Assembly (NCBI GenBank): GCA_963781885.1
Contig: CAWAHW010000001.1
Location: 128,001-192,000, forward strand
Direction of reading: 5' to 3'
DNA: 64,000 nucleotides
Source: an uncultured Spirochaetota bacterium
Lineage (GTDB): Bacteria > Spirochaetota > Spirochaetia > SZUA-6 > Fen-1364
Positions 43,532 through 60,147 of this stretch are shown piece by piece. How positions within the stretch are numbered: position 1 is the first letter of the stretch; every line of letters begins with the position of its first letter. The notes beneath the pieces are model-generated. The model saw nothing but the letters and a program-made list of their open reading frames with translations. It did not search any database and was not told the DNA's origin. Made by a program: the position numbers and the translations under genes.

Positions 43532-43548
43532 GGGGATTGCGCCTCCGT

Positions 43549-44403: not shown

Positions 44404-45314
44404 AGCTCAACCTCGCGCGATCGGGTGGCGGCGATCGATCCGATGGAGGCGACGAAGGTGAGCAGGTAGATGACCACGCCGATCGCGCTCCCGATGCCGA
44501 TCTGGGGATTTCCCGAATCCACGGAGCCGAACGCCGTGCGATAGAAAAGGGTGCCAATCGTGTCCGTGGAATAGTTGGGCGGGCCGTCGAGCCCGGTCAT
44601 GGTGTAGACCTGCTCGAAGACGTTGAGGCTCCCGATGATCGTGAGCACGGTGATGACGGCGATCGCCGGGATGATCAGGGGAAAGACGATCTTCCAGAAG
44701 GTTGTCCATTCCCGCGCGCCATCGAGATGCGCCGCCTCCAGACATTCGCCCGGCAGGCCGTCGATGGCCGCCAGAAAGACCAGTGACGGGAAACCCACCC
44801 AGCGCCAGATATTGACGACGATGACGGAGAAGGTGGCGATCTTCTCCTCACCCAGCCACGCGTGGGTCCAGCCCGTGAGCCCGACCAGCTTCAGGAATGC
44901 GTTGACGAGGCCGTTCGGCTTCAGGTACAGCCCCCACAGGAAGCCCACGGCAACGATGGAAAAAAGCACCGGGATGAAAAAGATCCGCTTGTAGAATCCG
45001 CTCCCGGCGACCCTGCGGCTGAGAAGGTAGCCGAAGAGCAGGCCGATGCTGTTCTGCACGAGCATCGTGACGAGGAACCACTTGAGGTTGTTGCCCAGGG
45101 CGCCGAAAAATCGCGTCCGGTAGGGATCGGCAAGAAGGATCTTGCGGAAGTTGTCCAGCCCGACGAAGCCGCCCCGGATGAGCTGCTGCCAGTCGAAGAG
45201 GCTGTTGAAGAGCGAGACAAAGAGGGGCAGGAGGATGAAGACGCCCACGACGGCGAGCCCCGGAAGCACAAAGAGGGTGATCCACAATCCCTTGCGGACG
45301 TCGGCTCTCGTCAT
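44400..45314 (-). CDS. Carbohydrate ABC permease
   Basis: EAAHLDGA loop; GAAGGGAGG RBS before ATG 45314. Confidence 0.9.
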   Translation of the reverse strand: MTRADVRKGLWITLFVLPGLAVVGVFILLPLFVSLFNSLFDWQQLIRGGFVGLDNFRKILLADPYRTRFFGALGNNLKWFLVTMLVQNSIGLLFGYLLSRRVAGSGFYKRIFFIPVLFSIVAVGFLWGLYLKPNGLVNAFLKLVGLTGWTHAWLGEEKIATFSVIVVNIWRWVGFPSLVFLAAIDGLPGECLEAAHLDGAREWTTFWKIVFPLIIPAIAVITVLTIIGSLNVFEQVYTMTGLDGPPNYSTDTIGTLFYRTAFGSVDSGNPQIGIGSAIGVVIYLLTFVASIGSIAATRSREVEL

Positions 45315-45342
45315 GGATGCCCTCCCTTCTGCGGAAAATGAA

Positions 45343-45371
45343 CGGGGCGGCGCGCCACGGCCGCCGCCCCG
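45343..45371 (-). other. Intergenic GC-rich stem-loop after the binding-protein gene
   Basis: CGGGGCGGCG / CGCCGCCCCG inverted repeat; no clear T tail. Confidence 0.55.
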
Positions 45372-45387
45372 CGGATTGCCGGGCAGG

Positions 45388-46632
45388 CTACTTCTTGAAG
45401 GGAGCGTAGTACGTTGCGATCCCGTCCTGGATCTGCTTCGCGACGTCCGCCGGCGTGAGCGTTCCGGCAAACATGCCCTGAAGCGCCGCCTGCGCGAGCG
45501 TGGATCCGGTGGGCTGCTGGTAGCGGAAGCCCACGAGGAAGACGTACGGGGTCTCGTATTTCTGGAAGGAGAGCACCTTCGAGATGAAGGGATCCGCGGT
45601 GGTATCGACGCCCGGCACCACGGAGACCTGCTTGAGGCTCTTGATGAAGAAGTCGCCCGTCGCCTTGCTCGCGAAGTAACGCAGCAGCTTTGCGGCAGCG
45701 GCCTTGTTCTTCGATGCCGCGTTCATGCTGAAGTTCCCGTCGGCATACGTGGAAACGTACTGCGGGTCGCCCGCCTTTGCCGCGGGTCCGGGGAACACGT
45801 CGAGCTGCAGGTCGGGGTTCTGGGAGAGGAAATAGCCCGCCTCGAAGGAGCCGCCGATGAAGTGGCCGGCCTGCTCATTGATGAAGGAGGTCTGCATGTC
45901 GGTGTAGCTCACGCCCATGTAGAGATTCGGCAGGTAGGGAATGAGGTCTTTGAGCTTGCCGATCGCGTTCACGAAACGGGCATCCTGGAAGTTCGTCTGT
46001 CCCTTCACCACGGCGTTGAAGTAGTCATTGGCGCCGTAGAAATTGGGGCAGAGCGCTCCCAGCATGACCTCGAGGGTCCACCCATCCTTGGCGCCGTTGG
46101 CCAGGGGCTGGATGCCCGCCTTCTTCATCGCGTCGAGATTGGAGAGGAACTGGGCCCAGGTGGCAGGCGGCTTCAGTCCCAGCTTCGCGTACATCTTCTT
46201 GTTGTAGTAGACGAAAAGGGTCTGGCTGGCGAAAGGCACGCCGTATATCTTGCCGTCCTTGATCGACGTGGCTCCGCGCAGTGGCGCCGAGGCGAACCCC
46301 TTGAGCTCGGGCACCCACTGTTCCAGCGGCTCCAGGTAGCCGGACTGCGCGAATGTCTCCAGCCCGCCGTAGGCGCGGCTCTGGAACACATCCGGTCCCG
46401 CGCCGCCGCTCAGCGCCGCGGAGAGGATCGTGTTGTATTCCGTGTTCTTCTGCGCGGTCTGGACAACCTGGATGTCGGGGTTCAGCTTCTGGAAATCCGC
46501 CAGGAGCTGGTTGTACTTGTCCACGTCCTCGGGCCGCCAGGTCCAGTACTGGAGGGTCGTCTTCTGGCCGAAGGCGAGACCCGCGATACCAAGAATGAGC
46601 AAAGACGCGAGGAAAATCTTCCGTCCGTTCAT
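45388..46632 (-). CDS. Carbohydrate ABC substrate-binding protein
   Basis: Signal peptide ending AFG-Q; GPDVF, DGKIYGVP..VYYNK, PATW; AGGAGG RBS. Confidence 0.9.
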   Translation of the reverse strand: MNGRKIFLASLLILGIAGLAFGQKTTLQYWTWRPEDVDKYNQLLADFQKLNPDIQVVQTAQKNTEYNTILSAALSGGAGPDVFQSRAYGGLETFAQSGYLEPLEQWVPELKGFASAPLRGATSIKDGKIYGVPFASQTLFVYYNKKMYAKLGLKPPATWAQFLSNLDAMKKAGIQPLANGAKDGWTLEVMLGALCPNFYGANDYFNAVVKGQTNFQDARFVNAIGKLKDLIPYLPNLYMGVSYTDMQTSFINEQAGHFIGGSFEAGYFLSQNPDLQLDVFPGPAAKAGDPQYVSTYADGNFSMNAASKNKAAAAKLLRYFASKATGDFFIKSLKQVSVVPGVDTTADPFISKVLSFQKYETPYVFLVGFRYQQPTGSTLAQAALQGMFAGTLTPADVAKQIQDGIATYYAPFKK

Positions 46633-46736
46633 GGCTTCCTCCTGAGGCTTCCAGAGTGGCGTCGCCCTCCGAAGATGTCAAGTTGGACCGCCTCCGCCTC
46701 CTTCACGCGACGCGCGTTCTTCCGTATAGTGCCCCT

Positions 46737-47932
46737 GTGTCCTCCTCGGAAGAGCCCGATTCATTCATAATCGAAGGTGGCGAGGTCGTTCTCCCCGATC
46801 GCGTGATCAGGAACGGGGTCCTTCTTGCAAAGGGCGCAAAGATCCTCCACGCCGGACTGGCGCAGAAGCTGCCCCTTCCCCTTCCCGCCGGCTGTCGGCG
46901 CATCGATGCGCAGGGGGCGATCGTGTGTCCGGCGCTTTGGGAGCAGCACATACACGGCTGCGGCGGGATCAGCACGGAGGGGATGAGCCCCCGGTCGCTG
47001 AAAGAGATGGCGCGCTTTCTCGCCCGGCGCGGCGTCGGCGCCTTCCTTCCCACAACCGTCCCGCTCGAGGAATCCCTCTCGCTGTTGGGGGAGGCGATGG
47101 AGGCCACGGCGGGCGATCCCGACATCGCCGGGAGGATCCCGGCATCTCCGTGGAGGGTCCATTCGTCGCCCCGTCGCGTCGCGGGGCCATACCGGAAGGC
47201 CTCCTGCGGCAGCCGTCGCCCGCCTACCTTCAGCGTATGATCGCCCTTTGCCGGGGACACATGAAAATGCTCACCTTTGCACCCGAGCTGCCGAACGCGC
47301 GGGCGCTGCTGGACCCGCTCCGTGCTTCCGGCATCATCCCCTTCCTCGGGCATTCGGGAGCCGCGTTCACCGATCTGGCGGGCTACGAATCCATTTCCCC
47401 CCTGGGCGTCACGCATCTGTGGAACGGAATGAGCGGCGTGTCCCACAAGGAGCCGGGGCTCGCGCTCTGGGCCCTGCTGGACCGTCACGCCTTCACGGAG
47501 ATCAACTGCGACGGCACGCACGTCGACGATGCCGCGGTACAGCTCGTGCTTCGCACCCGTCCCGGGGAGAAGCTCATCGTCATCTCCGACGCCATAGCGC
47601 CGGCGGGCCTGGCGCCGGGCGGCGCGCCGTCCTTCCTGTATGGCAGGCGCCTGGTCGAGAAGGGCAGCGGCCTGTACGACGAAGACTCCGGTACGCTTGT
47701 CGGGTCGCGATCCCTGGTCCCGGACTGCCTCGTGCGGCTGGTGCACGATCTGAACGTGCCGCTTGCATCCGCGGTGAGCATGGCAACCTTGAATCCTGCC
47801 CGTCTCCTGGGCTACCCCTGCAAGGGCGCCTTGCTTCCCGGCTACGATGCCGACGTGGCCATCCTGAGCCGGGATTTCGCCCATTGCTCCTTCATGAGCT
47901 GGGAGGGGAGGCCTCTCTTCGAAGAGCCGTAG
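46737..47932 (+). CDS. nagA: N-acetylglucosamine-6-phosphate deacetylase, frameshift near 47140
   Basis: QHIHGCGG, FLPT, EGPF, TFAPE, GHS, THLWNGM, DGTHV, ISDA, NPA. Confidence 0.88.
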
Positions 47933-47935
47933 TGG

Positions 47936-49336
47936 TTACGGGACCGCCCGGTAGGTGCCGTCCGTCAGGTTGATGTCGATATTGTTGTCCGCGTGCGGCG
48001 GCTCGCCCTTCCACATCCCCTCGATCACGTCCTTCTTCATCGCGATCGCAAGCGATCCCATGAGGCTCAGGTTCTTCGTGGGATACATCTGCGTGCCCGT
48101 GAAATGCGCGTCCCCGGCGTAGTGCGCGAGCCCCGCCTCGGTGAGAGGCTCGGCGATGGTGTCCGCCTCCGCGCGGGAGATGCCGTAGCCCATGAGCACG
48201 CTTTCGATGTACGGGAACATTCCCTTGCGCGAATAGTCGCGCGCAAAGGCGGGGAAGCCCTCCGGCATCTCGGGAAGCGATTCAATGTGGAAGCTGCGCA
48301 CCTGCATGAGCTGGTCGGCGCCGATCTGCACGAGCCGGTACGGGCAGGGATAGGTGACGAGCGACCCGGTCTCGATGTCGTAGAGGAAACGGGGGCTCGG
48401 GGGCTCGCTCTTCGCGTCGCGGGCATCCCACCACGCACCGGCGATGTTCTGGGCGTGGAAGTGACCGGTGAAGACCGCGCGCACGCCGTCGTCCGCGAGC
48501 ATCAGGGAAAACGCGTCGTTGTCCTGCACGACGTACGCCGCGAACTGCTTCTTCTGCCCCGGGAAATGCTCCACCACCCCGTGGTGCATCATCACGATGA
48601 CGGCCTTGTTCTCCGCGCGGGCCCGCGCGAGGATCTCCTTCGCCCAGGCGAGCCTCTCCGGGGTGAACGATCCAGCGGTATGCTCGTGCTTCTCCTTTGC
48701 GCTGAGGTCGTAGCGGCAGGCATCCAGCGCCAGAAGCCACAGCCCGGGCGCGGGTTCCACGACGTAGGCAAGGGAGTTGGGGTCGCGCGCGATCGCCGCG
48801 TCGTAGCCGAAGTCGCGGTAGATCTCGGCAAAGCGCGCGGGGGTCACGTTGGGAATGCGGGAGGTCGTGTCCCCGTCGTACCGCACGGACTCGGGGTTGT
48901 TCACGTCGTGATTGCCCGGGATCACGAAGACGGGGATGCCGGCGGCCTTTATCCTTTCCAGCGCCGCGGCAACCGCGAGATGGACAGCCTCTTCCCCGTC
49001 CTTGCTGAGATCCCCGGGGACGAGCACGAAATGGGGCTTCGCCTCGATGATCTTGTCGATCACCGTATTCAGCAGGCTCACGCTGTGCTCGAAAATCTTC
49101 CTGTCGTCGAACTTGATCTTCTCAAAGGCGGGCTGCCCGATGCCCAGCTCGGGCAGGAAGATGTGCGGGTCGGAGAAGACGGCGAAGCTCGTCTCGGGAT
49201 AGGCGGGGAAAGGGCCTGTCGCTTTCTCCGCGCGGAAGCTCATGCTCGAGCATCCGGCGATAAGGAGCACTGCGAGTATCGCGAGGATCGCGGCGCGCAG
49301 CGCGATTGCGTGACGTCTGGTTGTCGCTGTCTTCAT
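47936..49336 (-). CDS. Calcineurin-like metallophosphoesterase lipoprotein
   Basis: LIAGC lipobox; SDPH, PGDL, PGNHD, MMHH, TGHFH. Confidence 0.88.
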   Translation of the reverse strand: MKTATTRRHAIALRAAILAILAVLLIAGCSSMSFRAEKATGPFPAYPETSFAVFSDPHIFLPELGIGQPAFEKIKFDDRKIFEHSVSLLNTVIDKIIEAKPHFVLVPGDLSKDGEEAVHLAVAAALERIKAAGIPVFVIPGNHDVNNPESVRYDGDTTSRIPNVTPARFAEIYRDFGYDAAIARDPNSLAYVVEPAPGLWLLALDACRYDLSAKEKHEHTAGSFTPERLAWAKEILARARAENKAVIVMMHHGVVEHFPGQKKQFAAYVVQDNDAFSLMLADDGVRAVFTGHFHAQNIAGAWWDARDAKSEPPSPRFLYDIETGSLVTYPCPYRLVQIGADQLMQVRSFHIESLPEMPEGFPAFARDYSRKGMFPYIESVLMGYGISRAEADTIAEPLTEAGLAHYAGDAHFTGTQMYPTKNLSLMGSLAIAMKKDVIEGMWKGEPPHADNNIDINLTDGTYRAVP

Positions 49337-49478
49337 GGGCTTTCCTTTTTCCAGGATGCGCCGAGAGTAGCAGGATGTACGTGATCGCGCAACAGCGCTG
49401 CGCGGACCCCGGCAGTTCTCCTTTTGGGCCTTAGCATGAAAACTTCTTGACATTTGGGAATCCATCGCCTAATAATCG

Positions 49479-49502
49479 TTATTGTAAGACAATCTTACAA
49501 TT
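49479..49502. promoter_or_regulatory. Operator 1 (GntR/FadR-type) upstream of the GntR-ARH gene
   Basis: TTATTGTAAGACAATCTTACAATT, containing the palindrome ATTGTAAGA-CAA-TCTTACAAT; TTGACA at 49447. Confidence 0.75.
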
Positions 49503-49563
49503 CATGAAGTGCCGTCCAAAGTTTCATGGGCTCTAGTGGCGGGTATGATCGAGGGGTGGAGTC

Positions 49564-51195
49564 ATGAAACCTGTTACACGAAAAACCCTGGCATCTCTCA
49601 TCGCGGAGCAGATCAGGGCCGAAATCGTCCGGGGGAATCTCAAGGCTGCTCAACGCCTTCCCAGCGAGGCGGAGCTGAGCGCGGAGTTCAATGTCGGCCG
49701 GCCCACACTGCGGGAGGCCCTTCGCATCCTCGAGGGCCAGGGATGGGTCCAGATCAAATTCTCCACCGGTGTTTTCGTTTCCGATCCCGAGAATCTCGCG
49801 GACCGCATGTCCTCGTACTACGGCAAGGAAGGAATACGGGACCTCCTGGATTCCGAGCTCGCCCAGCTCCAGCACGAGGGCAGGGAGGTGCCTGCCTCCG
49901 CCAGAACCGATCTTCTCCACCTGCAGGAGGACGGAAAGCTGCGGGAGATCGAAGAGCTGGTGGAGAAACTGCAGAAGCTCCCGGCATCGTCCAGCTTCTC
50001 CTACGTGGAGCCGACGACGCTCGCCGACATACGATCCGCCCGACAGGCCGCCGCGGAAGCGCCGGACAAGCGTGACAGGGTGGCCGATCTGAGGGATCGC
50101 ATCCACGGCGGCCTGCTGGGCCGCTGCATCGGCAGCCTCCTTGGCACGCCGGTCAATGGGTGGACCGCGAACGCCATCGAGCAGTATCTGCGCGCGATCG
50201 ATCGCTACCCCCTGACGGGTCTCATGCCCTACGCCCCGAACGAGGTGGCGCGCGGCCAGTATTCATTCCTCGGAGCCGAAGCGCAGTCCGCGCCCGTGCC
50301 CCCGCGGGGCCTCCTGCGCGGGGTCGAGCCGGAGTTCGCCATCCTCAACGACACGATCATCAGCCTCAAGGTGATGCAGCTCCACGGGTGGGATTTTTCT
50401 TCCGAGGACGTCGGCGAGGAGTGGCTTTCTTCCCTTCCCTACCGGACGACGCTCACCGCGGAAAGACAGGCGTACGGAAACCTCGTGCGGGGCCTCTCCC
50501 CGCCGGCCACCGCCACGATCCTCAATCCCTTCCGCGAATGGATCGGCGGCACCGTGCGCGCCGACCTCTACGGCTACGTCTGCCCGGGCGACCCTGCGCT
50601 GGCGGCGATGCTTGCCTTCCGCGACGCAACCGTTTCCCATACGAAGAACGGCGTCTACGGCGCCATGTTCGTGGCCGCTGCCATCGCCGCGGCGTTTGTC
50701 GCACAAAGCGCGGAGGAGATCGTCACGGCGGGCATGGGCCAGATCCCGCAGCGCTCCCGGTTGTGGGAGCTTCTGTCCCAGGTCGTGCAGTGGTGGAAGG
50801 ACGGAACGGAGTGGCAGGTTTCCGTGGCGCGCATCGAGGAGCGCTGCGCGGACTACCGGCGGCCGCACGTGCTGCCCAACGCGGCAAGAATCGCCGTCGG
50901 CGTCCTGCACGGGGGCCTGGACGTCCGCGCGACGATCTGCACGACCGTCATGTGCGGGAACGACCCGGACTGCAATGCCGGCGCTGCGGGCTCCATCATC
51001 GGCGTGCACGCGGGCGCCCGCGGCATTCCCGACGATTTCCGGCACGCCGTCGGTGACCGGCTCCCGAGCGCCGTGCTCGGCTTTCACGAGACGAAAATCA
51101 GCCTGGTGGCGGAAATGGCGGAAAAGATCGCGGCCTCCCGTCCGGGCGAGGGACGCGAGACGGTCAAGCCGGCGCGCGATGCGAAACGGATCTGA
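49564..51195 (+). CDS. GntR (FadR-like) HTH fused to an ADP-ribosylglycohydrolase-fold domain
   Basis: RLPSEAELSAEFNVGRPTLREALRILE HTH; LLGRCIGSLLG, TAERQAY, NPFREWIGG..RAD, SHTKNGVYG, GNDPDCNAG..GS. Confidence 0.85.
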   Translation: MKPVTRKTLASLIAEQIRAEIVRGNLKAAQRLPSEAELSAEFNVGRPTLREALRILEGQGWVQIKFSTGVFVSDPENLADRMSSYYGKEGIRDLLDSELAQLQHEGREVPASARTDLLHLQEDGKLREIEELVEKLQKLPASSSFSYVEPTTLADIRSARQAAAEAPDKRDRVADLRDRIHGGLLGRCIGSLLGTPVNGWTANAIEQYLRAIDRYPLTGLMPYAPNEVARGQYSFLGAEAQSAPVPPRGLLRGVEPEFAILNDTIISLKVMQLHGWDFSSEDVGEEWLSSLPYRTTLTAERQAYGNLVRGLSPPATATILNPFREWIGGTVRADLYGYVCPGDPALAAMLAFRDATVSHTKNGVYGAMFVAAAIAAAFVAQSAEEIVTAGMGQIPQRSRLWELLSQVVQWWKDGTEWQVSVARIEERCADYRRPHVLPNAARIAVGVLHGGLDVRATICTTVMCGNDPDCNAGAAGSIIGVHAGARGIPDDFRHAVGDRLPSAVLGFHETKISLVAEMAEKIAASRPGEGRETVKPARDAKRI

Positions 51196-51254
51196 AGCAA
51201 TGGAATGCACATCATCGGTGCGGGGATGAACCCCGCCGGAAGAAGGAGGAAGAG

Positions 51255-52541
51255 ATGTCCGAAACAGTGAATGTCCGGGGCAGACAGGACAGGGGGGCTC
51301 CCCAGATCCTGCCTGCCCGTGCGCAATCCGACCTGATCACGGAGCTGGTGAGAAACCGACTCGATACGGTTCTTCCCGTTGCCATGAAGGAGGCGGGGCT
51401 CGACATGTGGATCATCCTCAGCCAGGAGGACGACCTGGACCCCCTCTACAAGACGATGGTTCCGATGGACTGCTGGAACCCGATCCTCCAGATGCTCGTC
51501 TTCGTCGACGAGGGCAACGGAAAGATCAGCCGGTACAGCATCTCGGGGACCGATACGAAGGACCTCTACGAGCGTCCCTACATCGGACAGCTGGAGGAGA
51601 AGCAGTGGCCGGTGCTCCTCGACCTGGTAAACAAGCGGGACCCGAAGACCATCGGGGTGAATATCGGATCGGTGGCATGGGCGGCCGGCGGGCTCACGCA
51701 CTTCCTCTACAAGCAGCTTGAGGAAAAGCTCCCACAGAAGTACGCGAAACGCCTGGTCTCCGCGGAGAAAGCCGCCGTGCGCTGGGGTGCCTGCCTCACG
51801 GATCGGGAGATCGATCTTTTCCGGCACGTCGTGGAGATCGCCCACGGCATCATCGCCGACAGCTTCAGCCGGATGACGATCACCCCCGGGGTGACCACCG
51901 TGGACGACCTGGTGTGGTTCTACTGGCAGCGCTCCATCGATCTGGGCCTCGAGCTCTCCTTCCGGCCCTATTTCCGTCTCATTCGAAGCGACGCCGCCAT
52001 CCAGCTCCATGGCGCCAATGACAAGGTCATCAGGCCCGGGGACGCCATTCACAGCGACGTGGGCATCAAGTACCTTCGGATGAACTCGGACAACCAGCAC
52101 ATCGCTTACGTTCCCCGGAGGGGCGAGACGGATGCCCCTGCCGGGCTCAAGGCGCTCATGGCGCAGACCAACAGGCTGCAAGACATCTTCATGAGCGAGT
52201 TCAAGGTGGGCATCTCGGGCAATCAGCTTCTGCAGAACATCCTGAATCGGGCTCGGCGCGAAGGGATCGGCATGCCCCGGGTCTACTCCCACTCACTCGG
52301 GCTCTTCCTCCACCAGCCGGGACCCCTCATCGGCCTGCCGTGGGAACAGGAGAAGCCCCTGGCCCGTGGCGAGGTCCTGATGCAGCACAACTATGCATTC
52401 ACCATGGAGTTGAGCACGGATGGGCCGGTGCCGGAGTGGAACGGCCAGACCGTCAGATGCCCCATGGAGGAGCCGGTCGTGTTCACAAAGGAAGGCTGCA
52501 TGACGTTGAAGGGTCGGCAGACCGAGTTCTACTTGATATGA
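51255..52541 (+). CDS. M24 family (Xaa-Pro aminopeptidase-like) metallopeptidase, cytoplasmic
   Basis: Metal ligands in SDVG, NSDNQH, YSHSLG, MELS, MEEP; AAGGAGG RBS; no signal peptide. Confidence 0.82.
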   Translation: MSETVNVRGRQDRGAPQILPARAQSDLITELVRNRLDTVLPVAMKEAGLDMWIILSQEDDLDPLYKTMVPMDCWNPILQMLVFVDEGNGKISRYSISGTDTKDLYERPYIGQLEEKQWPVLLDLVNKRDPKTIGVNIGSVAWAAGGLTHFLYKQLEEKLPQKYAKRLVSAEKAAVRWGACLTDREIDLFRHVVEIAHGIIADSFSRMTITPGVTTVDDLVWFYWQRSIDLGLELSFRPYFRLIRSDAAIQLHGANDKVIRPGDAIHSDVGIKYLRMNSDNQHIAYVPRRGETDAPAGLKALMAQTNRLQDIFMSEFKVGISGNQLLQNILNRARREGIGMPRVYSHSLGLFLHQPGPLIGLPWEQEKPLARGEVLMQHNYAFTMELSTDGPVPEWNGQTVRCPMEEPVVFTKEGCMTLKGRQTEFYLI

Positions 52542-52571
52542 GCTTTTGCTTGACATCCGCCATTGGGCATG

Positions 52572-52601
52572 ATTGTATTATTGTCAGACAATAATACAAT
52601 T
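52572..52601. promoter_or_regulatory. Operator 2: perfect 14-bp inverted repeat upstream of oppA
   Basis: ATTGTATTATTGTC-A-GACAATAATACAAT; TTGACA at 52550. Confidence 0.8.
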
Positions 52602-52649
52602 TAGAAAACAACCCACGGACGTGGGAAAGCAAGGAAAAGGAGGAGTAGC

Positions 52650-54290
52650 ATGAAAGATTTCAAGACCAGATGGGCACGCATTGCGGTTTTCGCGATCGTG
52701 TTCATGGTGGGCGCGAGTGCCGTATTCGCGGCTGCGCAGAAGATTCTGTATCTGCCCGCCGACGCGGAGTTCGACAATCTCGACCCGCGGGTGTTGACGT
52801 CCACCATCCAGCAGCTCGTGCAGTTCGGCATTTTCGAGCCGCTCGTGCGCACGCACGACGGTCAGCTCCTGCCCGGCATGGCGAAGACCTGGGAGGAGTC
52901 CAAGGATGGAATGACCTATACCTTCCATCTCCGGGATGCCAAGTGGTCCGATGGAAAAGCGGTGACGGGCGGCGACTTTGTGCACGCGTTCGTGCGCATG
53001 TTCCAGATCTGCCCGGCAAGTCCCATCTATGACGACATCAAGAACGGAGCGGAGCTGCGCGCGGGCAAGGTGCAGCCGGCCGACCTCGGCGTGAAGGCGC
53101 CGGACGACAAGACGGTGGTCATCACCCTGAAGAACCCCGCTCCCTACTTCATGGGCCTCATCGCGAGCTCCTTCGGCGCGCCGGGCCGTGAAGACCTCGT
53201 CGCCAAGTACGGCGATGCCTACGGCGCGAGCGTCGACTCGCTGGCCAGCAATGGCCCCTTCATCCTCAAGGAATGGAAGAAGGACGACAAGATCGTGATG
53301 GTGAAAAACCCCAACTACTGGAACGCGGGAGCCATCAAGCTGGACCAGGTCGTCGTCTACGTCCTTCCCACCCCCCAGACCCAGCGGAATCTCTTTGACA
53401 GCGGGCAGCTCGACATGTATCTCCCCCGCGCCGAATCCGAGGCCAAGGATTACCAGGCAAAGGGCCTCCTGAGCTTCTTCGTACGCGGCGGGATCCGCGA
53501 CCTGCAGATCAACCGGCACGGCCAGAATGACCCCGTGAAGGCGAAGATCCTGAGCAATGTGAACTTCATGAAGGCCATCTCCTACGCCATCGACCGGCAG
53601 GGCTACGTGGACAACGTTCTCCAGGGAGCCGGCTACCCGGCCACCGTGCAGACGCCCCCCGGGACCGGCGTCTACCCCGGAAAGACCTGGGGCCAGGTGA
53701 GCACGAATATCGGCAAGTACCATCCCGTGAAGGCGGACCTGGCGAAGTCCAAGGCATACATGGATCTCGTGCTGAAGGACAACGGGTTCACCTCGGTGGA
53801 CCAGCTCCCGACGTTCGACTTCCTGACCTCGATCGGGCCCGACGATCCCAAGGACGTCACCGGTTACCTGCTGGGCGTCTTCAAGCAGATGGGCCTGAAG
53901 ATCAACGTGAAGCTCGCGACGGGCCAGCAGTTCTACAACAACCTGTACAAGCCCGCCCTCGCCTGGGACATGTGCCGCGCGGGGTGGGGCCCTGACTTCG
54001 ACGACCCGGCGACGTACATGGGCTACTGGGTCACCGCGTCCACCGACATGGGCGTGACCTATGAGAATGCCCAGTTCGATACTCTGTTTGCAAAGGCCAA
54101 CATGGAAACCGACCTCGTGAAGAGGGCTGTAATCCTCAACCAGGCCGAGGCCTTGTTCTCCGACAATGCGCCGTGCATCCCCATTACGTGGTATAAGGGT
54201 GAGATCGCGCTGTCGGCGCGCGTGAAGGGCTTCACGACCGCCATCACCGGACTGACGACGGACTATATCTTCGCGGACGTCACCAAGTAA
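52650..54290 (+). CDS. oppA: Oligopeptide ABC substrate-binding protein (family 5)
   Basis: Signal peptide; YTFHLRDAKWSDG, SNGPF, KNPNYW, GWGPDF; AGGAGG RBS. Confidence 0.9.
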   Translation: MKDFKTRWARIAVFAIVFMVGASAVFAAAQKILYLPADAEFDNLDPRVLTSTIQQLVQFGIFEPLVRTHDGQLLPGMAKTWEESKDGMTYTFHLRDAKWSDGKAVTGGDFVHAFVRMFQICPASPIYDDIKNGAELRAGKVQPADLGVKAPDDKTVVITLKNPAPYFMGLIASSFGAPGREDLVAKYGDAYGASVDSLASNGPFILKEWKKDDKIVMVKNPNYWNAGAIKLDQVVVYVLPTPQTQRNLFDSGQLDMYLPRAESEAKDYQAKGLLSFFVRGGIRDLQINRHGQNDPVKAKILSNVNFMKAISYAIDRQGYVDNVLQGAGYPATVQTPPGTGVYPGKTWGQVSTNIGKYHPVKADLAKSKAYMDLVLKDNGFTSVDQLPTFDFLTSIGPDDPKDVTGYLLGVFKQMGLKINVKLATGQQFYNNLYKPALAWDMCRAGWGPDFDDPATYMGYWVTASTDMGVTYENAQFDTLFAKANMETDLVKRAVILNQAEALFSDNAPCIPITWYKGEIALSARVKGFTTAITGLTTDYIFADVTK

Positions 54291-54315
54291 GGCGCCGCAC
54301 GCAGTATGAGCGAAC

Positions 54316-54346
54316 GAGGCCGGGTCGCGGGACCCGGCCTCTCTTC
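54316..54346 (+). terminator. Stem-loop after oppA (weak terminator or mRNA stabiliser)
   Basis: GAGGCCGGGTC-gcgg-GACCCGGCCTC followed by TCTTC. Confidence 0.6.
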
Positions 54347-54409
54347 ATCCCTCAAAGTCAAAATGAAAGTCGGTGAGACCCGGGGTTCCATCCCCGGGGA
54401 AGGACGGGT

Positions 54410-55330
54410 ATGGCACGCTATATTCTGAATCGCGTCCTTGTCGCGATTCTCACGATGTTTGTCCTGGCGACGACCACCTTCTTCCTCATGCGGCTGGTGC
54501 CCGGCGACCCCATGGCCGGGCCCAAGGTGACACCGGAGGTGAAGGCGATCCTCCGCAAGCACTACGGGCTGGACAAGCCCCTGATGGAGCAATACGTCAT
54601 CTACATGGGCAATCTCCTGCGGGGGGACTTCGGCTGGTCCATGGCCAAGCGCGGCAATCGCGTGAACGACATCATCCGTGACGCCTTTCCCGCCTCCCTG
54701 GACCTCGGCGTCCGGTCGATGATCGTCGCCATCATCATGGGCCTCTTTTTCGGGATCGTCGCGGCCCTCCACCGGGGAAAGCCCATGGACTACCTCACGG
54801 TGATCCTCGTCCTGGTCGGCATCTCCGTGCCCAGCTTCGTCGTTGCCGGCCTGCTCCAGTATTTCTTCGGCGTCTACCTCCACGTCCTGCCCGTGGCCCG
54901 CTACGACAACTGGAAGGCGACGCTCATGCCGACATTCGCCCTGAGCCTCGGCACGATGGCCACCCTTGCCCGCTACATGCGCGCGAGCATGCTGGAGATC
55001 GTCAACGCCGACTACATCAAGACGGCAAAGGCCAAGGGATTGAGTCGTCTGCAGATCGTCATGCGCCACCAGGTGCGCAACGCCCTGTTCCCGATCCTCA
55101 CCATCCTGGGTCCCGCCATCGCCATGGTGCTCACGGGGTCCTTCATCATCGAGACGGTCTTCGCCATCCCCGGCCTGGGCCGGCACTACGTGAACGCGAT
55201 GCAGAATCTCGACTACACCCTCATGCTGGGCCTCACGCTGTTCTTCGGTTTCTTCCTGATCGCGATGAATCTCCTGGTGGACTTCGCCTACGGGCTGATC
55301 GATCCCCGGGTCCGGCACACGCGGGGATGA
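54410..55330 (+). CDS. oppB: Oligopeptide ABC permease
   Basis: PGDP, YGLDKP, DYIKTAKAKGL, IDPRVR. Confidence 0.92.
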   Translation: MARYILNRVLVAILTMFVLATTTFFLMRLVPGDPMAGPKVTPEVKAILRKHYGLDKPLMEQYVIYMGNLLRGDFGWSMAKRGNRVNDIIRDAFPASLDLGVRSMIVAIIMGLFFGIVAALHRGKPMDYLTVILVLVGISVPSFVVAGLLQYFFGVYLHVLPVARYDNWKATLMPTFALSLGTMATLARYMRASMLEIVNADYIKTAKAKGLSRLQIVMRHQVRNALFPILTILGPAIAMVLTGSFIIETVFAIPGLGRHYVNAMQNLDYTLMLGLTLFFGFFLIAMNLLVDFAYGLIDPRVRHTRG

Positions 55331-55340
55331 GGAGCGTGCC

Positions 55341-56258
55341 ATGAGCGAGCTGCCGCGGGAGATGTTCACACCGCTCGATCGGGCGGAAAAGGCCGGGCTG
55401 AAGACGGAAACCGAGACGATCGCGTTCTGGAGCGACGTCTGGCGCCGGTTCCGCAGGAACAAGGCGGGCATGGCGGGAGTGGTGATCGTCCTCCTCTTCG
55501 TGATCCTCGCGATCGTCGGCCCGTCGCTCGTGCCCTTCAAGTTCGACCAGATCGACCTGACGTCCACCTACGTCCTTCCCGGACGCGCGCACTGGTTCGG
55601 CACCGACCTCCTGGGCAGGGACATCTGGGCCGAGCTCTGGGTGGGCGCCCGCGTCTCGCTCCTGATCGGCGTCGTCTCCGCGCTGAGCCAGATGGTCATC
55701 GGCACGATCATCGGCTCCCTCTCCGGCATCTATGGCGGCAAGGTCGACATGATCATCATGCGCGCCGTGGACATCCTGATCGCGGTCCCCTTCCTGATCT
55801 GGGTGAGCCTCTTCATGCTCGTGCTGAAGCCGGGCATACAGTCCATCATCCTCGCCTTCTCCATCACCGAATGGAAAGGCATGGCGCGCCTCGTGCGTGG
55901 CGAGGTCCTGCGCCTGAAAGAGACGGAATACGTCCTGGCAAGCAAGGGCATGGGGGCTTCCACCTGGCGCCTGATCACGAAGCATTTCTTTCCCAATCTC
56001 CTCCCCGTGGTCACCGTCTCCGTGACATTCCAGGTCACCGCCGCGATATTCGGCGAGGCGTTTCTGAGCTACATCGGCCTGGGCATCCAGCCGCCGCTCA
56101 CCTCATGGGGGGTCCTGATCGCGTCAGGGATCAACGAGATGCGCTCCTACACCTACATGCTCTTCATACCGGCGGTCTTCATCAGCCTCACGATGCTGTC
56201 GCTGCAGCTCATTGGCGACAGCCTTCGCGACGCCACCGACCCGAAGCTCCGGCAGTAA
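55341..56258 (+). CDS. oppC: Oligopeptide ABC permease
   Basis: HWFGTDLLGRD, EYVLASKGMGA, GDSLRDATDP. Confidence 0.92.
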   Translation: MSELPREMFTPLDRAEKAGLKTETETIAFWSDVWRRFRRNKAGMAGVVIVLLFVILAIVGPSLVPFKFDQIDLTSTYVLPGRAHWFGTDLLGRDIWAELWVGARVSLLIGVVSALSQMVIGTIIGSLSGIYGGKVDMIIMRAVDILIAVPFLIWVSLFMLVLKPGIQSIILAFSITEWKGMARLVRGEVLRLKETEYVLASKGMGASTWRLITKHFFPNLLPVVTVSVTFQVTAAIFGEAFLSYIGLGIQPPLTSWGVLIASGINEMRSYTYMLFIPAVFISLTMLSLQLIGDSLRDATDPKLRQ

Positions 56259-56271
56259 GGGGCGCGCGAAG

Positions 56272-57297
56272 ATGCCACAGGAAAAGCTTCTCGAAGTGCA
56301 GAATCTCACGATCTCCTTCCACACGTTCGCCGGCGACGTCTCGGCCGTGCGCAACGTGGACTTCGACCTGCGCCCGGGCGAGGTGATCGCCATCGTGGGG
56401 GAGTCGGGGAGCGGCAAGAGCGTCTCCACGCAGGCGATACTCGGGCTCACGCCGATTCCCCCCGGCGAGATCAAGAGCGGCAAAATCCTTTTCAAAGGGG
56501 AGAACCTGCTCACCTGCAGTGCCAGACGCCTGAGCGAGGTGAGCGGCGCGCAGATTTCGATGATCTTCCAGGACCCGATGACCTCGTTGAATCCCACGAT
56601 GAAGGTGGGAAACCAGATCCGGGAAATCCTCCACCAGCACGCGCGGCTCACCCGGGCGGAAAGCGCGGAGCGGGCCATGGAGCTCATGAATCTCGTCGGT
56701 ATCCCCGAGCCCCGGGTGCGCCTGGGCCAGTATCCCCACGAGTTCTCGGGCGGCATGCGCCAGCGCGCCATGATCGCCATGGCAATGGCCAATCGCCCCG
56801 AGATCCTCATTGCCGACGAGCCGACGACGGCGCTCGACGTCACCATCCAGTCGCAGATACTCCGGCTGCTGCGCGAGCTGCAGCGCGACTTTCACACGGC
56901 CATCATCCTCATCACCCACGACCTCGGCGTGGTTGCGGGCATGGCGGACCGCATCGTGGTCATGTACGCGGGCAGGGTCATGGAGGAAGGCACGACCGAC
57001 CAAGTCTACTATCGCCCCCACCATCCCTATACGGCCGGTCTGCTCCAGGCCGTTCCGAGCCTCGCGGATGACGAGCGGAAAAAGCTGCGCACCATCGAGG
57101 GCACGCCGCCCTTCCTTCTCCATGTTCCCCCCGGGTGCCCCTTTGCCGAGCGTTGCGACTATTCGATGCGCATCTGCAAGGAAAAGGAGCCGCCGTACCA
57201 CCATCCCGAGGCCGGCAACCGGGTCTTCTGCTGGCTCTACGACGAGGGTGCATCGGATCAGCGCGCGCGATTCGCGGCAAGGGAAGTGGCGCAATGA
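56272..57297 (+). CDS. oppD: Oligopeptide ABC ATPase
   Basis: GESGSGKS, FQDPMTSLNP, FSGGMRQR, HPYT, GCPFAERC. Confidence 0.93.
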   Translation: MPQEKLLEVQNLTISFHTFAGDVSAVRNVDFDLRPGEVIAIVGESGSGKSVSTQAILGLTPIPPGEIKSGKILFKGENLLTCSARRLSEVSGAQISMIFQDPMTSLNPTMKVGNQIREILHQHARLTRAESAERAMELMNLVGIPEPRVRLGQYPHEFSGGMRQRAMIAMAMANRPEILIADEPTTALDVTIQSQILRLLRELQRDFHTAIILITHDLGVVAGMADRIVVMYAGRVMEEGTTDQVYYRPHHPYTAGLLQAVPSLADDERKKLRTIEGTPPFLLHVPPGCPFAERCDYSMRICKEKEPPYHHPEAGNRVFCWLYDEGASDQRARFAAREVAQ

Positions 57298-58250
57298 CGG
57301 CAAAGATCCTGGAGCTTCATCATCTCCAGAAGCATTTCACCCTGAGCAGGGGACGGGTGCTGAAGGCCGTGGAGAACATCGACCTTGACATCTACGAAGG
57401 GGAGACCTTCGGGCTGGTCGGAGAGTCGGGCTGCGGAAAGTCCACGCTGGGAAGGACCATCAAAGGCATCTACGAGCCCACGGCCGGCCAGATCCTTTAT
57501 AACGGAAAGGATACCGCTCACATGGACGGCCAGGAGCGCAAGCTCTACCGCCGTGATTTACAGATCATCTTCCAGGACCCCTACTCATCGCTCAACCCCC
57601 GCATGACGGTGAAGGAGCTGATCGCCGAGGGGCTGGAGATACACGGTCTGGGCACGAAGGAAGAGCAGAAAGAAAGGGTCTTCGAGACGCTGAAGCTCGT
57701 GGGGCTCAGCCCCGAGTACGTGACGCGCTTCGCGCACGAGTTTTCCGGCGGCCAGAGACAGAGGCTTGCCATCGCGCGCGCGCTTGCCGTGAGGCCGCGC
57801 TTCATCGTCTGCGATGAGCCCATCTCCGCGCTGGACGTCTCCATCCAGGGGCAAATCGTGAACCTCATGAAGGACCTGCAGCGAGAGCTCGGCCTCACGT
57901 ACCTCTTCATTGCCCATGACCTGTCCATGGTGAAGTACATCAGCGACCGCGTCGGGGTGATGTACCTGGGAAGACTGGTGGAGGTCGCCGACAAGGCGGA
58001 GCTTTTCGCCAATCCGCAGCATCCCTATACGCAGGCTCTGCTGTCTTCCATCCCGATCCCCAATCCGAACATCGAGCGGCAGCGGAAGGAGATCCCCATC
58101 GAGGGGGAGATCCCCAGCCCCCTTGAAAAAATCGACGGCTGCAGCTTCAAGACGCGCTGCCCTTTCGCAGTGGCAAAATGCGACACCATGGCCTACGAGC
58201 TTCGGGACATCGGCAACCAGCACGTCGTGATGTGCACGAAGTTCCAGTAG
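57294..58250 (+). CDS. oppF: Oligopeptide ABC ATPase
   Basis: ATGA overlap; GESGCGKST, FSGGQRQR, DEPISALD, HPYT. Confidence 0.93.
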   Translation: MTAKILELHHLQKHFTLSRGRVLKAVENIDLDIYEGETFGLVGESGCGKSTLGRTIKGIYEPTAGQILYNGKDTAHMDGQERKLYRRDLQIIFQDPYSSLNPRMTVKELIAEGLEIHGLGTKEEQKERVFETLKLVGLSPEYVTRFAHEFSGGQRQRLAIARALAVRPRFIVCDEPISALDVSIQGQIVNLMKDLQRELGLTYLFIAHDLSMVKYISDRVGVMYLGRLVEVADKAELFANPQHPYTQALLSSIPIPNPNIERQRKEIPIEGEIPSPLEKIDGCSFKTRCPFAVAKCDTMAYELRDIGNQHVVMCTKFQ

Positions 58251-58282
58251 CCGCGCGTCGCTTTCCCTGGGCCCCTTGACGC

Positions 58283-58311
58283 TTGACCCCCCGCGCTCCC
58301 TGGTGTAAGTT
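58283..58311 (+). promoter_or_regulatory. Sigma70 promoter of the ilv leader
   Basis: TTGACC-17nt-TAAGTT. Confidence 0.6.
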
Positions 58312-58321
58312 CGTGAAGGTT

Positions 58322-58408
58322 ATGAACGGAAAAGGCTTGCAGACACGGCTCGCGCTCCTCGTCGTCGTACTCGTACTTTCGGGAGGCACCGCCGTGTGTG
58401 CACCGTAG
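58322..58408 (+). CDS. ilvB leader (attenuator) peptide MNGKGLQTRLALLVVVLVLSGGTAVCAP
   Basis: 28-codon ORF with the run L-A-L-L-V-V-V-L-V-L, directly before the terminator and ilvB. Confidence 0.85.
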   Translation: MNGKGLQTRLALLVVVLVLSGGTAVCAP

Positions 58409-58429
58409 GCTGGTCAAGCGAATTGACAC

Positions 58430-58468
58430 AAGCCCTGCTCGGTGGACACCGAGCGGGGCTTTTTTTTT
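58430..58468 (+). terminator. Attenuator terminator of ilvBN
   Basis: AAGCCCTGCTCGGTG / CACCGAGCGGGGCTT stem followed by a T run, 14 nt before the ilvB start. Confidence 0.9.
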
Positions 58469-58482
58469 CCGAAGGAGGGGTC

Positions 58483-60147
58483 ATGGAGTACAGCGGTGCG
58501 TCCCTGCTGATCGAGCTTCTGAAGCGGCAAGGCATCGGTATCGTGGCGGGCATACCCGGGGGCGCGAATCTCCCCCTGTACGACGCGCTGGGCCAGAGCG
58601 ACATGCGCCACATCCTCGTGCGGCACGAGCAGGCGGGCGGTTTCCTTGCCCAGGGCATGGCCCGCTCCACGGGCAAGGCCGCGGCGTGCATGGCAACGTC
58701 AGGCCCGGGCGCGGTGAACCTGCTCACCGCCATTGCCGATGCAAAGCTCGACTCTGTGCCCATCATCGCCGTCACGGGTCAGGTCGCCTCGGGGCTGATC
58801 GGCACCGACGCCTTCCAAGAGGTTGACACCTACGGCATGAGCATCCCCGTGACGAAGCACAACTTCCTGGTCCGCTCGATCCAGGAGCTGCTCGAGGTCG
58901 TTCCGGAAGCTTTCCGCTTCGCCCTCTCGGGCAGGCAGGGCCCCGTGCTCATCGACATGCCCAAGGACGTCCAGCAGGCACGGATCGATCTTGCCGACCT
59001 GCCCGCACCGGGCGTGCCCGACCCTGCCCCCGTCCCTGACGGGGCCGTGCTCGCCTCCATGGCGCGCCTGATCGCCTCCGCGGAACGGCCCCTGCTCTAC
59101 GTCGGCGGCGGCGTCGTGGCCTCGGGGGCGGAAGAGGAGGTGCGCGCGCTTTCCGCGGCGTGCGGCATACCGGTGGTCTGCACGCTCATGGGGATCGGCA
59201 TCATGGACCCGGACGACCCGCTCCACCTTGGCATGCTCGGCATGCATGGAAGCCAGGCCACGAATCTCGCGGTGGACCGCACGGACCTCCTCATCGCGCT
59301 GGGCGTGCGTTTCGACGACCGTGCAACGGGTCTCATTGCCGGCTTTGCCCCCCGCGCGCGAGTCATCCACATGGATATCGACGAGGCGGAGATCGGCAAG
59401 ATCCGGCGGCCCGACATCTCGGCGGCCTGCGACGTGAAGCGCGCCCTGCGGAGGCTGAACCGCCTGGTGGGCACGACGCGCCGGGAGGCCTGGCGGGCGG
59501 AGATCGAAGCGATGAAGCGCGCTCATCCCCTGGCCGTTCCCGACGATCCCTCCCACGCGAGCAATCTCGTGCGGTCACTCGCCGCGCTGGCGCCCGACGC
59601 GCTCCTCACGGTGGACGTCGGCCAGCACCAGATGTGGGCGGCGCAGTGCTGGCCCGTGCGCGGCACCCGGCGCTTCCTCACCTCCGGGGGTCTGGGGACA
59701 ATGGGTTTCGCGGTTCCCGCGGCGATGGGCGTCGCCCTTGCGCACCCCGGGCAGAGCGTGCTCGCGCTCACGGGTGACGGCTCGCTCCTCATCAACATCC
59801 AGGAGCTGGCCACCATCGCGGAGAACCGGCTGGACGTGAAAATCTGCGTCTTCAACAACGGCCACCTGGGGCTCGTGCGGCAGCAGCAGGAGCTTTTCTA
59901 CGGCAAGCGCTACGTGGCCTCTCGTTTCGACACGCGCCCGGATTTCGCCGCGATCGCCCGCGGCTTCGGCATCCCCGGCTGCACGATCGGCCTCCCCCAC
60001 GACAGGGCCTCGCTGACCCGCGCGCTCTCCATCAAGGGACCCGCCCTGCTGGACATCGCGCTGTGCGAGACGGAGAACGTCTACCCCATGGTCCCGCCCG
60101 GAAAGAGCAACGTCGAGGCCATCCTCAGCCAAAGGAGCGATGCATGA
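58483..60147 (+). CDS. ilvB: Acetolactate synthase large subunit
   Basis: GIPGGA, RHEQ, TSGPG, AFQE, RFDDR, DVGQHQMW, GDGS..NN TPP motif. Confidence 0.95.
   Translation: MEYSGASLLIELLKRQGIGIVAGIPGGANLPLYDALGQSDMRHILVRHEQAGGFLAQGMARSTGKAAACMATSGPGAVNLLTAIADAKLDSVPIIAVTGQVASGLIGTDAFQEVDTYGMSIPVTKHNFLVRSIQELLEVVPEAFRFALSGRQGPVLIDMPKDVQQARIDLADLPAPGVPDPAPVPDGAVLASMARLIASAERPLLYVGGGVVASGAEEEVRALSAACGIPVVCTLMGIGIMDPDDPLHLGMLGMHGSQATNLAVDRTDLLIALGVRFDDRATGLIAGFAPRARVIHMDIDEAEIGKIRRPDISAACDVKRALRRLNRLVGTTRREAWRAEIEAMKRAHPLAVPDDPSHASNLVRSLAALAPDALLTVDVGQHQMWAAQCWPVRGTRRFLTSGGLGTMGFAVPAAMGVALAHPGQSVLALTGDGSLLINIQELATIAENRLDVKICVFNNGHLGLVRQQQELFYGKRYVASRFDTRPDFAAIARGFGIPGCTIGLPHDRASLTRALSIKGPALLDIALCETENVYPMVPPGKSNVEAILSQRSDA

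Follow-up and report, generated by a model that had tools for sequence, protein, structure and literature searches.

A candidate peptide-uptake regulon under a GntR-type regulator with an ADP-ribosylglycohydrolase-like domain in an uncultured Spirochaetota bacterium

What does a bacterial transcription regulator sense when its effector domain has the fold of an ADP-ribosylglycohydrolase (ARH), and which genes does it control? The question is raised by a locus of an uncultured Spirochaetota bacterium (assembly GCA_963781885.1, contig CAWAHW010000001.1), lying within a stretch of 64,000 nucleotides (positions 128,001 to 192,000 of the contig; G+C content about 64%), referred to here as the window and numbered from its first letter. 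There, a GntR helix-turn-helix (HTH) domain fused to an ARH-like domain is followed by a M24-type metallohydrolase and the importer genes oppABCDF. The reading favoured here, with a probability of about 0.65, is a small self-contained regulon, where a local GntR-ARH repressor, released by an inducer, controls the uptake and hydrolysis of peptides; in this reading, repression, dimer binding, ligand-induced release, the peptide substrate and the ligand class are what we infer. The features involved are the following:

49447-49476, + strand: promoter of the regulator-M24 operon (TTGACA, 18 nt, AATAAT), with 11 of 12 consensus positions
49481-49501, both strands: operator O-reg, ATTGTAAGAcaaTCTTACAAT, a 9-3-9 palindrome with the core ATTGT-N3-ACAAT, covering the expected transcription start
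49564-51195, + strand: GntR-HTH/ARH-fold regulator P0001 (543 aa), with a winged HTH at residues 12-72, a helical linker at about 85-175 and an ARH-like domain at 182-490
51255-52541, + strand: M24B-type (prolidase/aminopeptidase P-like) metallohydrolase P0003 (428 aa), cytoplasmic, with a Peptidase_M24 domain and five metal ligands
52550-52579, + strand: promoter of oppABCDF as read from the sequence, with TTGACA at 52550-52555 and a weak -10 box at about 52573-52579, preceded by TG
52572-52600, both strands: operator O-opp, ATTGTATTATTGTC-A-GACAATAATACAAT, a perfect 14-1-14 palindrome with two nested ATTGT/ACAAT pairs, overlapping the -10 box
52650-54290, + strand: oppA, periplasmic SBP_bac_5 binding protein (238 bits; signal peptide)
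54410-55330, + strand: oppB, permease (domain matches)
55341-56258, + strand: oppC, permease (domain matches)
56273-57297, + strand: oppD, ATPase (ABC_tran and oligo_HPY), in a reading frame open from 56212 with the likely start ATG at 56273
57294-58250, + strand: oppF, ATPase (ABC_tran and oligo_HPY), in a reading frame open from 57135 with the likely start ATG at 57294, in an ATGA overlap with the oppD stop
47936-49336, - strand: calcineurin-like metallophosphoesterase lipoprotein, transcribed divergently (Metallophos, 62 bits), in the open reading frame (ORF) 47936-49465 with the likely start Met44 at 49336, then the lipobox LIAGC

This layout had already been described in the original prediction, and it stands: the Pfam matches place the GntR-ARH fusion first, then the M24 protein and then the complete oppABCDF. 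No signal peptide is predicted for the M24 protein, in line with a cytoplasmic enzyme; the divergent metallophosphoesterase carries both its domain and the lipobox; and the operator-like motif noticed before the regulator and oppA takes the form of two palindromes with the common core ATTGT-N3-ACAAT. The claim that regulator, M24 and oppABCDF constitute one locally controlled unit is also supported, as two cognate operators lie at the two promoters and are kept with the genes in the two genomes of the same genus that carry the locus, G005 and G018.

The regulators of G005 and G018 are 86% and 75% identical to the window protein, respectively, and belong to a clade whose members are 50-86% identical to it. 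In both genomes, the two palindromes, the two TTGACA boxes and their spacing are kept and the flanking DNA has diverged, and the 21-mer of O-reg is identical letter by letter in five of five clade members (the window, G005, G018 and the metagenome contigs L101 and L102). The M24 gene follows the regulator in G005, G018 and L101, and the Opp genes follow in G005 and G018, the sole two clade relatives with enough sequence. Palindromic operators with a GT-Nx-AC core near the regulated promoters are expected of the GntR family, and both palindromes appear to be of this type. The looser pattern TTGT-N3-ACAA occurs four times in the window against 0.07 expected, and the two copies beyond O-reg and O-opp fall within coding sequence. 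One copy (TTGTCGCACAA, at 50696-50706) lies inside the regulator gene itself and may be a chance occurrence or an internal low-affinity site.

The palindrome was also looked for in the 120 nt before the start of GntR-ARH genes 38-46% identical to the window protein, taken from metagenomes and genomes, with 24 loci having at least 80 nt. TTGT...ACAA was found in 15 and ATTGT...ACAAT in 12 of these 24 distant upstream regions, nearly all with a 3-nt spacer, several of the loci being closely related, so that they are not 24 independent trials and kinship inflates the counts. As controls, other 120-nt segments of the same loci carried the two patterns in 43 and 6 of 1355 cases, respectively, and shuffled sequences in about 7% and 1%. 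The upstream region of L122 carries ATTGTCAGACAAT, which is the exact core of the oppA operator of the window, and that of L123 carries a 21-mer with two differences from the O-reg 21-mer. The tie between the GntR-ARH winged helix and the ATTGT-N3-ACAAT palindrome is nevertheless difficult to attribute to chance.

Around these operators, a Rfam scan of 47000-59000 (E up to 0.1) gave zero matches. The 5' leader of oppA contains a hairpin, CCCACG-ga-CGTGGG, at 52612-52625, between the operator and the ribosome-binding site; its counterpart in G005, CCCACA-gg-TGTGGG, has a compensatory pair, and none was seen in G018. A GC-rich stem-loop, GCGGGG-atgaa-CCCCGC, is located at 51216-51240, within the 59 nt that separate the regulator stop from the M24 start, and is not a typical terminator since no T-run follows.

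Regarding the regulator, its N-terminal domain matches PF00392 (GntR) with 66.4 bits against a cut-off of 27 (residues 12-72), and the best solved matches of this HTH are the HTHs of NanR and PdhR. C-terminal to it, PF03747 (ADP_ribosyl_GH; 132.3 bits against a cut-off of 26.2, residues 182-490) is the only Pfam match, with no effector domain of a described GntR subfamily, and the NCBIfam matches are restricted to the HTH (weak MocR-like models among them), except for a sub-threshold match to PhnF (52.5 against 156.8 bits) that extends to residue 158. GntR regulators are classed by their effector domain, the described subfamilies being FadR/FCD, HutC/UTRA, MocR/aminotransferase, YtrA and AraR; an ARH-fold effector is not among them, and the GntR-ARH proteins would, on their architecture, be a further subfamily.

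The AlphaFold2 model of the regulator has a mean predicted local distance difference test (pLDDT) of 80 and a predicted template-modelling (TM) score of 0.81, and its top Foldseek matches are ARH3, MJ1187 and DraG (E 1.6e-6 to 4e-5; TM about 0.65-0.73 on the target; identity 12-16%). The Pfam match and the model agree on a predicted all-helical ARH fold. A single-sequence search of the PDB with the ARH domain gave no match beyond the HTH, and the relatives were found by profile and fold searches; in the ESM Atlas, residues 85-543 returned generic ARH clusters only, with scores of 0.88.

Does this domain still work as an enzyme? The catalytic columns were tabulated in the 120 best homologues, 13 of them in the clade of the window and 107 outside it, the latter being standalone ARH proteins (about 440 residues), LacI fusions, XRE fusions and most GntR fusions. 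In a profile alignment, the N-terminal G-x-x-x-G-x-P-x-E motif matches 'GDALGATVEF' of DraG and 'GDALGMPTEN' of MJ1187, and the C-terminal G-x-D-x-D-(T/C) motif likewise aligns with both. The Glu of the first motif, which we take to be the catalytic Glu41 of ARH3, in line with PDB titles that name E41A substrate-trapped complexes, occurs in all 107 sequences outside the clade against none of the 13 inside it, where it is replaced by Asn (8), Gln (4) or Thr (1), Asn198 being the residue of the window protein. The second and third Asp of the DDD triad are also present in 107 of 107 outside, against 0 and 1 of the 13 inside. In the window protein, the triad position reads G253-V254-E255, followed by a five-residue insertion, and the model has a pLDDT below 50 at residues 238-258, around the former triad.

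Judged from these alignments, the window protein lacks the catalytic Glu and the acidic metal-binding residues of the ARH enzymes. The C-terminal motif is retained (D467-x-D469-C470 in the window protein, D-x-D-C across the clade), and the degenerate clade has likewise preserved many other residues that are invariant in the subfamily (84 invariant columns in alignment A1). The ARH-like domain of this clade looks like a pseudoenzyme, a sensor rather than an enzyme, in agreement with the sensing role originally predicted for it. Since so many invariant residues survive while the catalytic set is gone, the pocket could still take up a ligand that it can no longer cleave.

The same fold has been joined to other DNA-binding domains. 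Among the 120 best clusters, 64 combine GntR with ARH, five LacI with ARH and four an XRE-type HTH with ARH, and 47 are ARH alone. In a tree of the ARH domain, with 119 of the 120 sequences (one, too short, was dropped), all GntR fusions form one group (support 100 in the Shimodaira-Hasegawa-like approximate likelihood-ratio test), in which seven proteins with no called HTH, probably the result of truncated calls, nest among near-identical GntR fusions. A second group consists of the LacI fusions (support 83), and a third, apart from both, contains the XRE fusions (support 100). Within the GntR group, the degenerate clade is recovered as monophyletic with a support of 100, on a long stem of 0.54 substitutions per site. 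Three types of DNA-binding domain joined to one enzyme subfamily are the usual signature of a domain that serves as sensor.

A recruited enzyme fold on a winged helix has precedents. MocR, GabR and PdxR carry a GntR winged helix, a long linker and a whole enzyme fold recruited for effector sensing and oligomerisation, and act as local regulators of adjacent operons. The window regulator resembles them in combining a GntR winged helix, a linker and a recruited enzyme fold; however, this fold is ARH (PF03747) and not a pyridoxal phosphate-dependent aminotransferase, no pyridoxal phosphate site is expected, and the catalytic residues are lost in the clade. In NrtR, an ADP-ribose-responsive repressor, the sensor joined to a winged helix is a Nudix fold, a hydrolase fold of ADP-ribose metabolism, and the regulon comprises nicotinamide adenine dinucleotide (NAD) metabolism. 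The original prediction had drawn this analogy, which holds for the concept of a hydrolase fold as sensor on a winged helix; the fold (Nudix), the domain order and the regulon differ, no positive sign of ADP-ribose binding was seen in the window regulator, and it is no member of the NrtR family.

Compared with ARH3, DraG and MJ1187, the window protein has the same fold and an aligned C-terminal G-x-D-x-D motif, but it is 12-16% identical to them, carries an extra helical extension of about 90 residues and is fused to an HTH, besides having Asn198 in place of Glu and no acidic triad. With regulators of the HutC/NagR and FadR types it would share the GntR HTH, the GT...AC palindromic operator, autoregulation and the control of an adjacent uptake or catabolic operon, whereas its C-terminal domain is neither UTRA nor FCD. 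Another link between a GntR regulator and an ARH-family protein is found in Escherichia coli, where, according to the available part of PMC10819704, GgaR (YegW) represses yegTUV, the genes for a transporter, the ARH-family protein YegU and a sugar kinase. As far as that part goes, regulator and YegU are separate polypeptides and the effector domain of YegW is not ARH, unlike the window protein, in which the ARH fold is the C-terminal domain of the regulator itself (PMC10819704).

No description of a GntR-ARH or other HTH-ARH regulator was found in the open-access full-text literature, although a description in a subscription journal is possible, and no HTH-ARH fusion is described in the available portion of PMC9503650. 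The automatic annotation of the Joint Genome Institute already labels such proteins 'GntR family / ADP-ribosylglycohydrolase'. The architecture itself is thus already visible in databases; the novelty lies in a GntR subfamily, so far uncharacterised, whose presumed sensor domain has the ARH fold, and in a pseudoenzyme clade within it that has left the sugar-uptake loci for a unit of GH3, M24 and Opp.

Concerning the structural genes, the importer has all five components of an Opp system (SBP_bac_5, two permeases and two oligo_HPY ATPases). Among solved structures, the nearest to this OppA are peptide-binding OppA and DppE proteins (E 8e-54 to 8e-49), compared with 2e-12 for a chitin-oligosaccharide binder; the scores of the protein for NCBIfam equivalogs are all far below the cut-offs (183 against 947 for OppA). 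It retains the motif R-x-G-W-x-x-D, aligned with Arg413 and Asp419 of Salmonella OppA, which presumably hold the peptide C- and N-termini, respectively. Because this motif is kept, the favoured cargo is peptides with a free N-terminus.

The M24 protein matches PF00557 (Peptidase_M24) with 39.4 bits against a cut-off of 23. Its metal ligands D268, D279, H346, E385 and E405 are unchanged in all 12 homologues aligned and have matching positions in the aminopeptidase P of Thermotoga maritima. Its model (pLDDT 81) aligns in Foldseek over about 400 columns with prolidases and aminopeptidases P (E 3.8e-16 and weaker; TM 0.64-0.68 on the target; identity 12-18%), creatinase and ectoine hydrolase being weaker fold matches. 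The five-ligand pita-bread domain and the two-domain architecture of the M24B group are both present in the predicted structure. There is no NCBIfam match, and a single-sequence search of the PDB was empty. More than 5,500 matches were found, with 59-97% identity among the 120 matches listed, and the named ones are M24 or aminopeptidase P family proteins; by sequence, this is a very conserved, widespread and uncharacterised family.

The regulon could work as follows. The regulator, presumably a dimer, would bind the ATTGT-N3-ACAAT palindromes at both promoters and block RNA polymerase, at the start site in the case of the regulator and M24 genes and at the -10 box in the case of opp, where the double palindrome may hold two dimers. 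Through O-reg, the regulator would hold its own level and that of M24 down as long as no inducer is present. A small molecule, bound and not hydrolysed by the inactive ARH-like pocket, would then cause the repressor to leave the DNA, Opp would bring in oligopeptides whose N-terminus is free, and these would be cleaved by the M24B enzyme in the cytoplasm. As for the inducer, a sugar-bearing compound, for instance a N-acetylglucosamine (GlcNAc)-type glycopeptide or a cell-wall fragment, is proposed tentatively, with the odds still against it, and ADP-ribose conjugates are improbable.

The sugar theme comes partly from the surroundings of distant homologues, where neighbouring genes were partly called by a crude longest-ORF procedure that over-extends in high-GC DNA, so that only Pfam-confirmed ones were used. 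The neighbours of standalone ARH homologues are mostly carbohydrate genes: SBP_bac_1 with two permeases, PfkB kinases, LacI and RpiR regulators, Gfo/Idh/MocA oxidoreductases and IU-type nucleoside hydrolases. For the 14 distant GntR-ARH fusions with a readable gene downstream, this gene is SBP_bac_1 in six and a long SBP_bac_5 (640-665 residues) in four, the other four being ThuA, GH32, an Opp-type ATPase and a URO-D-like protein, one each; GH78, GH2, GH51, a sulfatase and a nucleoside hydrolase appear further along. None of the 14 has a M24 or Metallophos neighbour. The presence of sugar importers and glycosidases around the fusions suggests that the family at large controls loci for the uptake of sugars and glycosides.

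In two loci, probably near-duplicates (L115 8013-10994 and L118 3-2997), the fused GntR-ARH gene is directly preceded by a standalone ARH paralogue of 432-436 aa and followed by a sugar-binding protein; such a pair of enzyme and sensor would be a good system for finding the substrate. Two further side observations concern these loci. URO-D-like (uroporphyrinogen decarboxylase family) genes adjoin GntR-ARH regulators in the metagenome loci L122 (2778-3824) and L113 (3936-5030). A 48%-identical homologue of the M24 protein occurs in an Anaerolineae genome (L191 8003-11832), between two URO-D-like genes and an amidohydrolase, as the sole copy among five genomes with standalone ARH.

The other part of the sugar theme comes from the clade itself. 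A GH3 gene adjoins the regulator in four of the five clade members; in G005, G018 and L101 it lies upstream in the same orientation, and in L102 directly downstream. The closest solved relatives of the GH3 protein are beta-N-acetylglucosaminidases of this family, including YbbD/NagZ of Bacillus subtilis (E 4e-58 to 3e-51), and it has no signal peptide. No close copy of it was found in the genome of the window, the best match elsewhere being 30% identical; relative to G005, 2.86 kb are missing in the window between the leader region of the phosphoesterase and the -35 box of the regulator. As far as gene order indicates, the conserved partner in the clade is this cytoplasmic NagZ-like GH3 and not the phosphoesterase, which is adjacent in the window because the GH3 gene was lost.

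The phosphoesterase lipoprotein, originally counted in the regulon, has been rejected as a member: there is no operator on its side of the intergenic region, the 2.86-kb GH3 segment stands between it and the regulator in G005, it was not found in about 49 kb around the G018 locus, and none of the 14 distant fusions has such a neighbour. The G005 copy matches the window protein in two frames (L093 1-1181; L187 10862-10999) and is apparently frameshifted, which is a hint against strong joint selection with the locus. The expectation that homologues would keep M24, Opp and phosphoesterase neighbours was borne out for M24 and Opp in G005 and G018 and failed in the distant loci, where M24 and Metallophos are missing. 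Homologues in unrelated contexts had been named beforehand as evidence against the prediction, and this is partly what was found, with importers of sugars or oligosaccharides and glycosidases beside the distant fusions. Its fallback of otherwise sugar-modified peptides gains some support, because the cytoplasmic NagZ-like GH3 adjoins the regulator in most of the clade.

The locus itself seems to be an accessory unit, probably acquired horizontally, given how scarce the regulator and the M24 protein are in the phylum and genus. None of 400 sampled genomes of the phylum carries the fused regulator, with only four standalone ARH genes among them, and three of 21 genomes of the genus have it; the M24 protein was not found in any other genome in a sample of 200 from the phylum. 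On plasmids, the M24 protein has one 36%-identical match, in an unrelated neighbourhood.

Several points weigh against the regulon as proposed. The core ATTGT-N3-ACAAT occurs in two places of the 4,643,512-base genome (16,000 bases excluded), namely O-reg and O-opp, and the reversed pattern used as control in one, so that the count of two is barely above the control and is weak evidence on its own; the weight of the operator case lies in position and conservation. Kinship among the surveyed loci lessens the force of the distant survey as well. The opp promoter was not called by a simple consensus scan, its -10 box being weak. The Asp of OppA, the anchor of a free peptide N-terminus, speaks against N-blocked N-acetylmuramic acid-peptides as cargo, and the loss of GH3 leaves the link to sugars indirect in the genome of the window. 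The residue-level reading of the dead site comes from sequence alignments, and the degenerate clade might instead have lost ligand binding entirely. Finally, most GntR-ARH proteins retain all catalytic residues, so that across the family the domain may combine catalysis with sensing.

Salvage of the cell wall is the alternative that survives best, and is possible but rather unlikely: the locus would import peptides derived from peptidoglycan, and the sensor would detect an amino-sugar or muropeptide signal. The affinity of the GH3 of the relatives to YbbD/NagZ and its lack of a signal peptide fit this, as does the amino-sugar operon at 40530-46632 (- strand), with a NgcE-like SBP_bac_1, two permeases, a N-acyl-D-glucosamine (GlcNAc) 2-epimerase (467 bits) and a MurQ-like SIS protein (129 bits, below cut-off), the putative etherase. 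These genes, with nagA, lie upstream of the locus in the window and, in synteny, in G005; in G018, however, they are not linked to it. G018 has instead a divergent epimerase-like gene of the enolase superfamily, scoring 198 bits against the 500-bit cut-off of the L-Ala-D/L-Glu epimerase model, of which the genome of the window has no close copy (29% identity), just as it lacks the GH3. The GH3 has no operator of its own and appears to lack the exact NagZ signature D-[ST]-H after KHFPG, and OppA is nearer to general OppA (E 8e-49) than to MppA (1e-31). A cell-wall or glycopeptide theme, drawn from the GH3, the amino-sugar genes and the epimerase-like gene, is plausible, not established.

It is doubtful, and less probable than cell-wall salvage, that the ARH-like domain is a dimerisation scaffold with no ligand, the protein being a constitutive or otherwise controlled repressor of an ordinary peptide-uptake operon. 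The loss of catalytic and metal-binding residues, the predicted disorder of the former triad region and the long branch of the clade would all agree with such decay; however, the retained non-catalytic invariant residues and the 50-86% identity within the clade, which indicates purifying selection across the domain, do not, and local repressors with no effector are unusual.

Less probable again is an Opp-type importer that carries oligosaccharides such as chito-oligosaccharides, as in many Thermotogae-type loci, with a M24 protein that is not a peptidase. The four distant GntR-ARH regulators that precede a long SBP_bac_5 stand among glycosidases, the GH3 linked to the regulator in relatives is N-acetylglucosaminidase-like, and the M24B folds include non-peptidases, creatinase and ectoine hydrolase being examples; against this, OppA is far closer to solved peptide binders than to the chitin-oligosaccharide binder, and it retains the Arg/Asp motif for the peptide termini.

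The weakest reading, that the sensor detects ADP-ribose or ADP-ribosylated peptides, which Opp imports, M24 trims and the phosphoesterase lipoprotein relieves of the ADP-ribose moiety, is very unlikely, for although the ARH fold is real, its known members bind ADP-ribosyl conjugates (by PDB titles), the D-x-D-C motif persists and the phosphoesterase adjoins the regulator in the window and is part of this region in G005 too, the clade has lost the Glu and the DDD triad, the phosphoesterase falls outside the regulon, no Nudix, macro, NAD-related or ADP-ribose metabolic gene lies near the locus in the window, and the distant fusions adjoin sugar importers and glycosidases.

A broader proposal, more speculative than the regulon itself and set below the suggestion of a sugar-bearing inducer, is that ARH-fold domains are an undescribed class of effector domain, recruited independently by GntR, LacI and XRE regulators for the uptake of glycosylated nutrients. 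Members with an intact site would be self-resetting 'trigger enzymes' that destroy their own inducer, and the clade of the window a pseudoenzyme offshoot sensing a modified (glyco- or ribosyl-) peptide imported by Opp. The carbohydrate-uptake loci suggest sugar-type substrates, and not ADP-ribosylated proteins, for the widespread ARH subfamily of about 440 residues; if true, this would widen the known chemistry of the fold. With more than half of the best clusters, many uncultivated anaerobe lineages and a crisp, testable operator, the GntR-ARH family offers an easy experimental entry, and the clade of the window, as a natural active-site knock-out, would be useful for finding the ligand.

Some minor observations concern the flanks of the locus. 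The upstream nagA (GlcNAc-6-phosphate deacetylase, 140 bits; 46656-47932, + strand) is split over two frames near 47140 and is in a single frame in G005; the window copy is either a frameshifted pseudogene or an assembly error. A family-less ORF of 393 aa on the opposite strand (46703-47884, -) is probably the antisense shadow of nagA. Downstream of oppF, a Leu/Val-rich leader ORF of 28 codons (58322-58408, + strand) is followed by a 14-bp GC-rich hairpin and a T run (58430-58470), and the start of acetolactate synthase is located at 58484. The terminator was tried as a plain end of the opp operon and rejected, since it follows the leader ORF and belongs to the acetolactate synthase, the whole region (58322-58484) looking like a classic branched-chain amino-acid attenuator. 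In G005, the leader peptide is almost unchanged and the hairpin carries paired changes.

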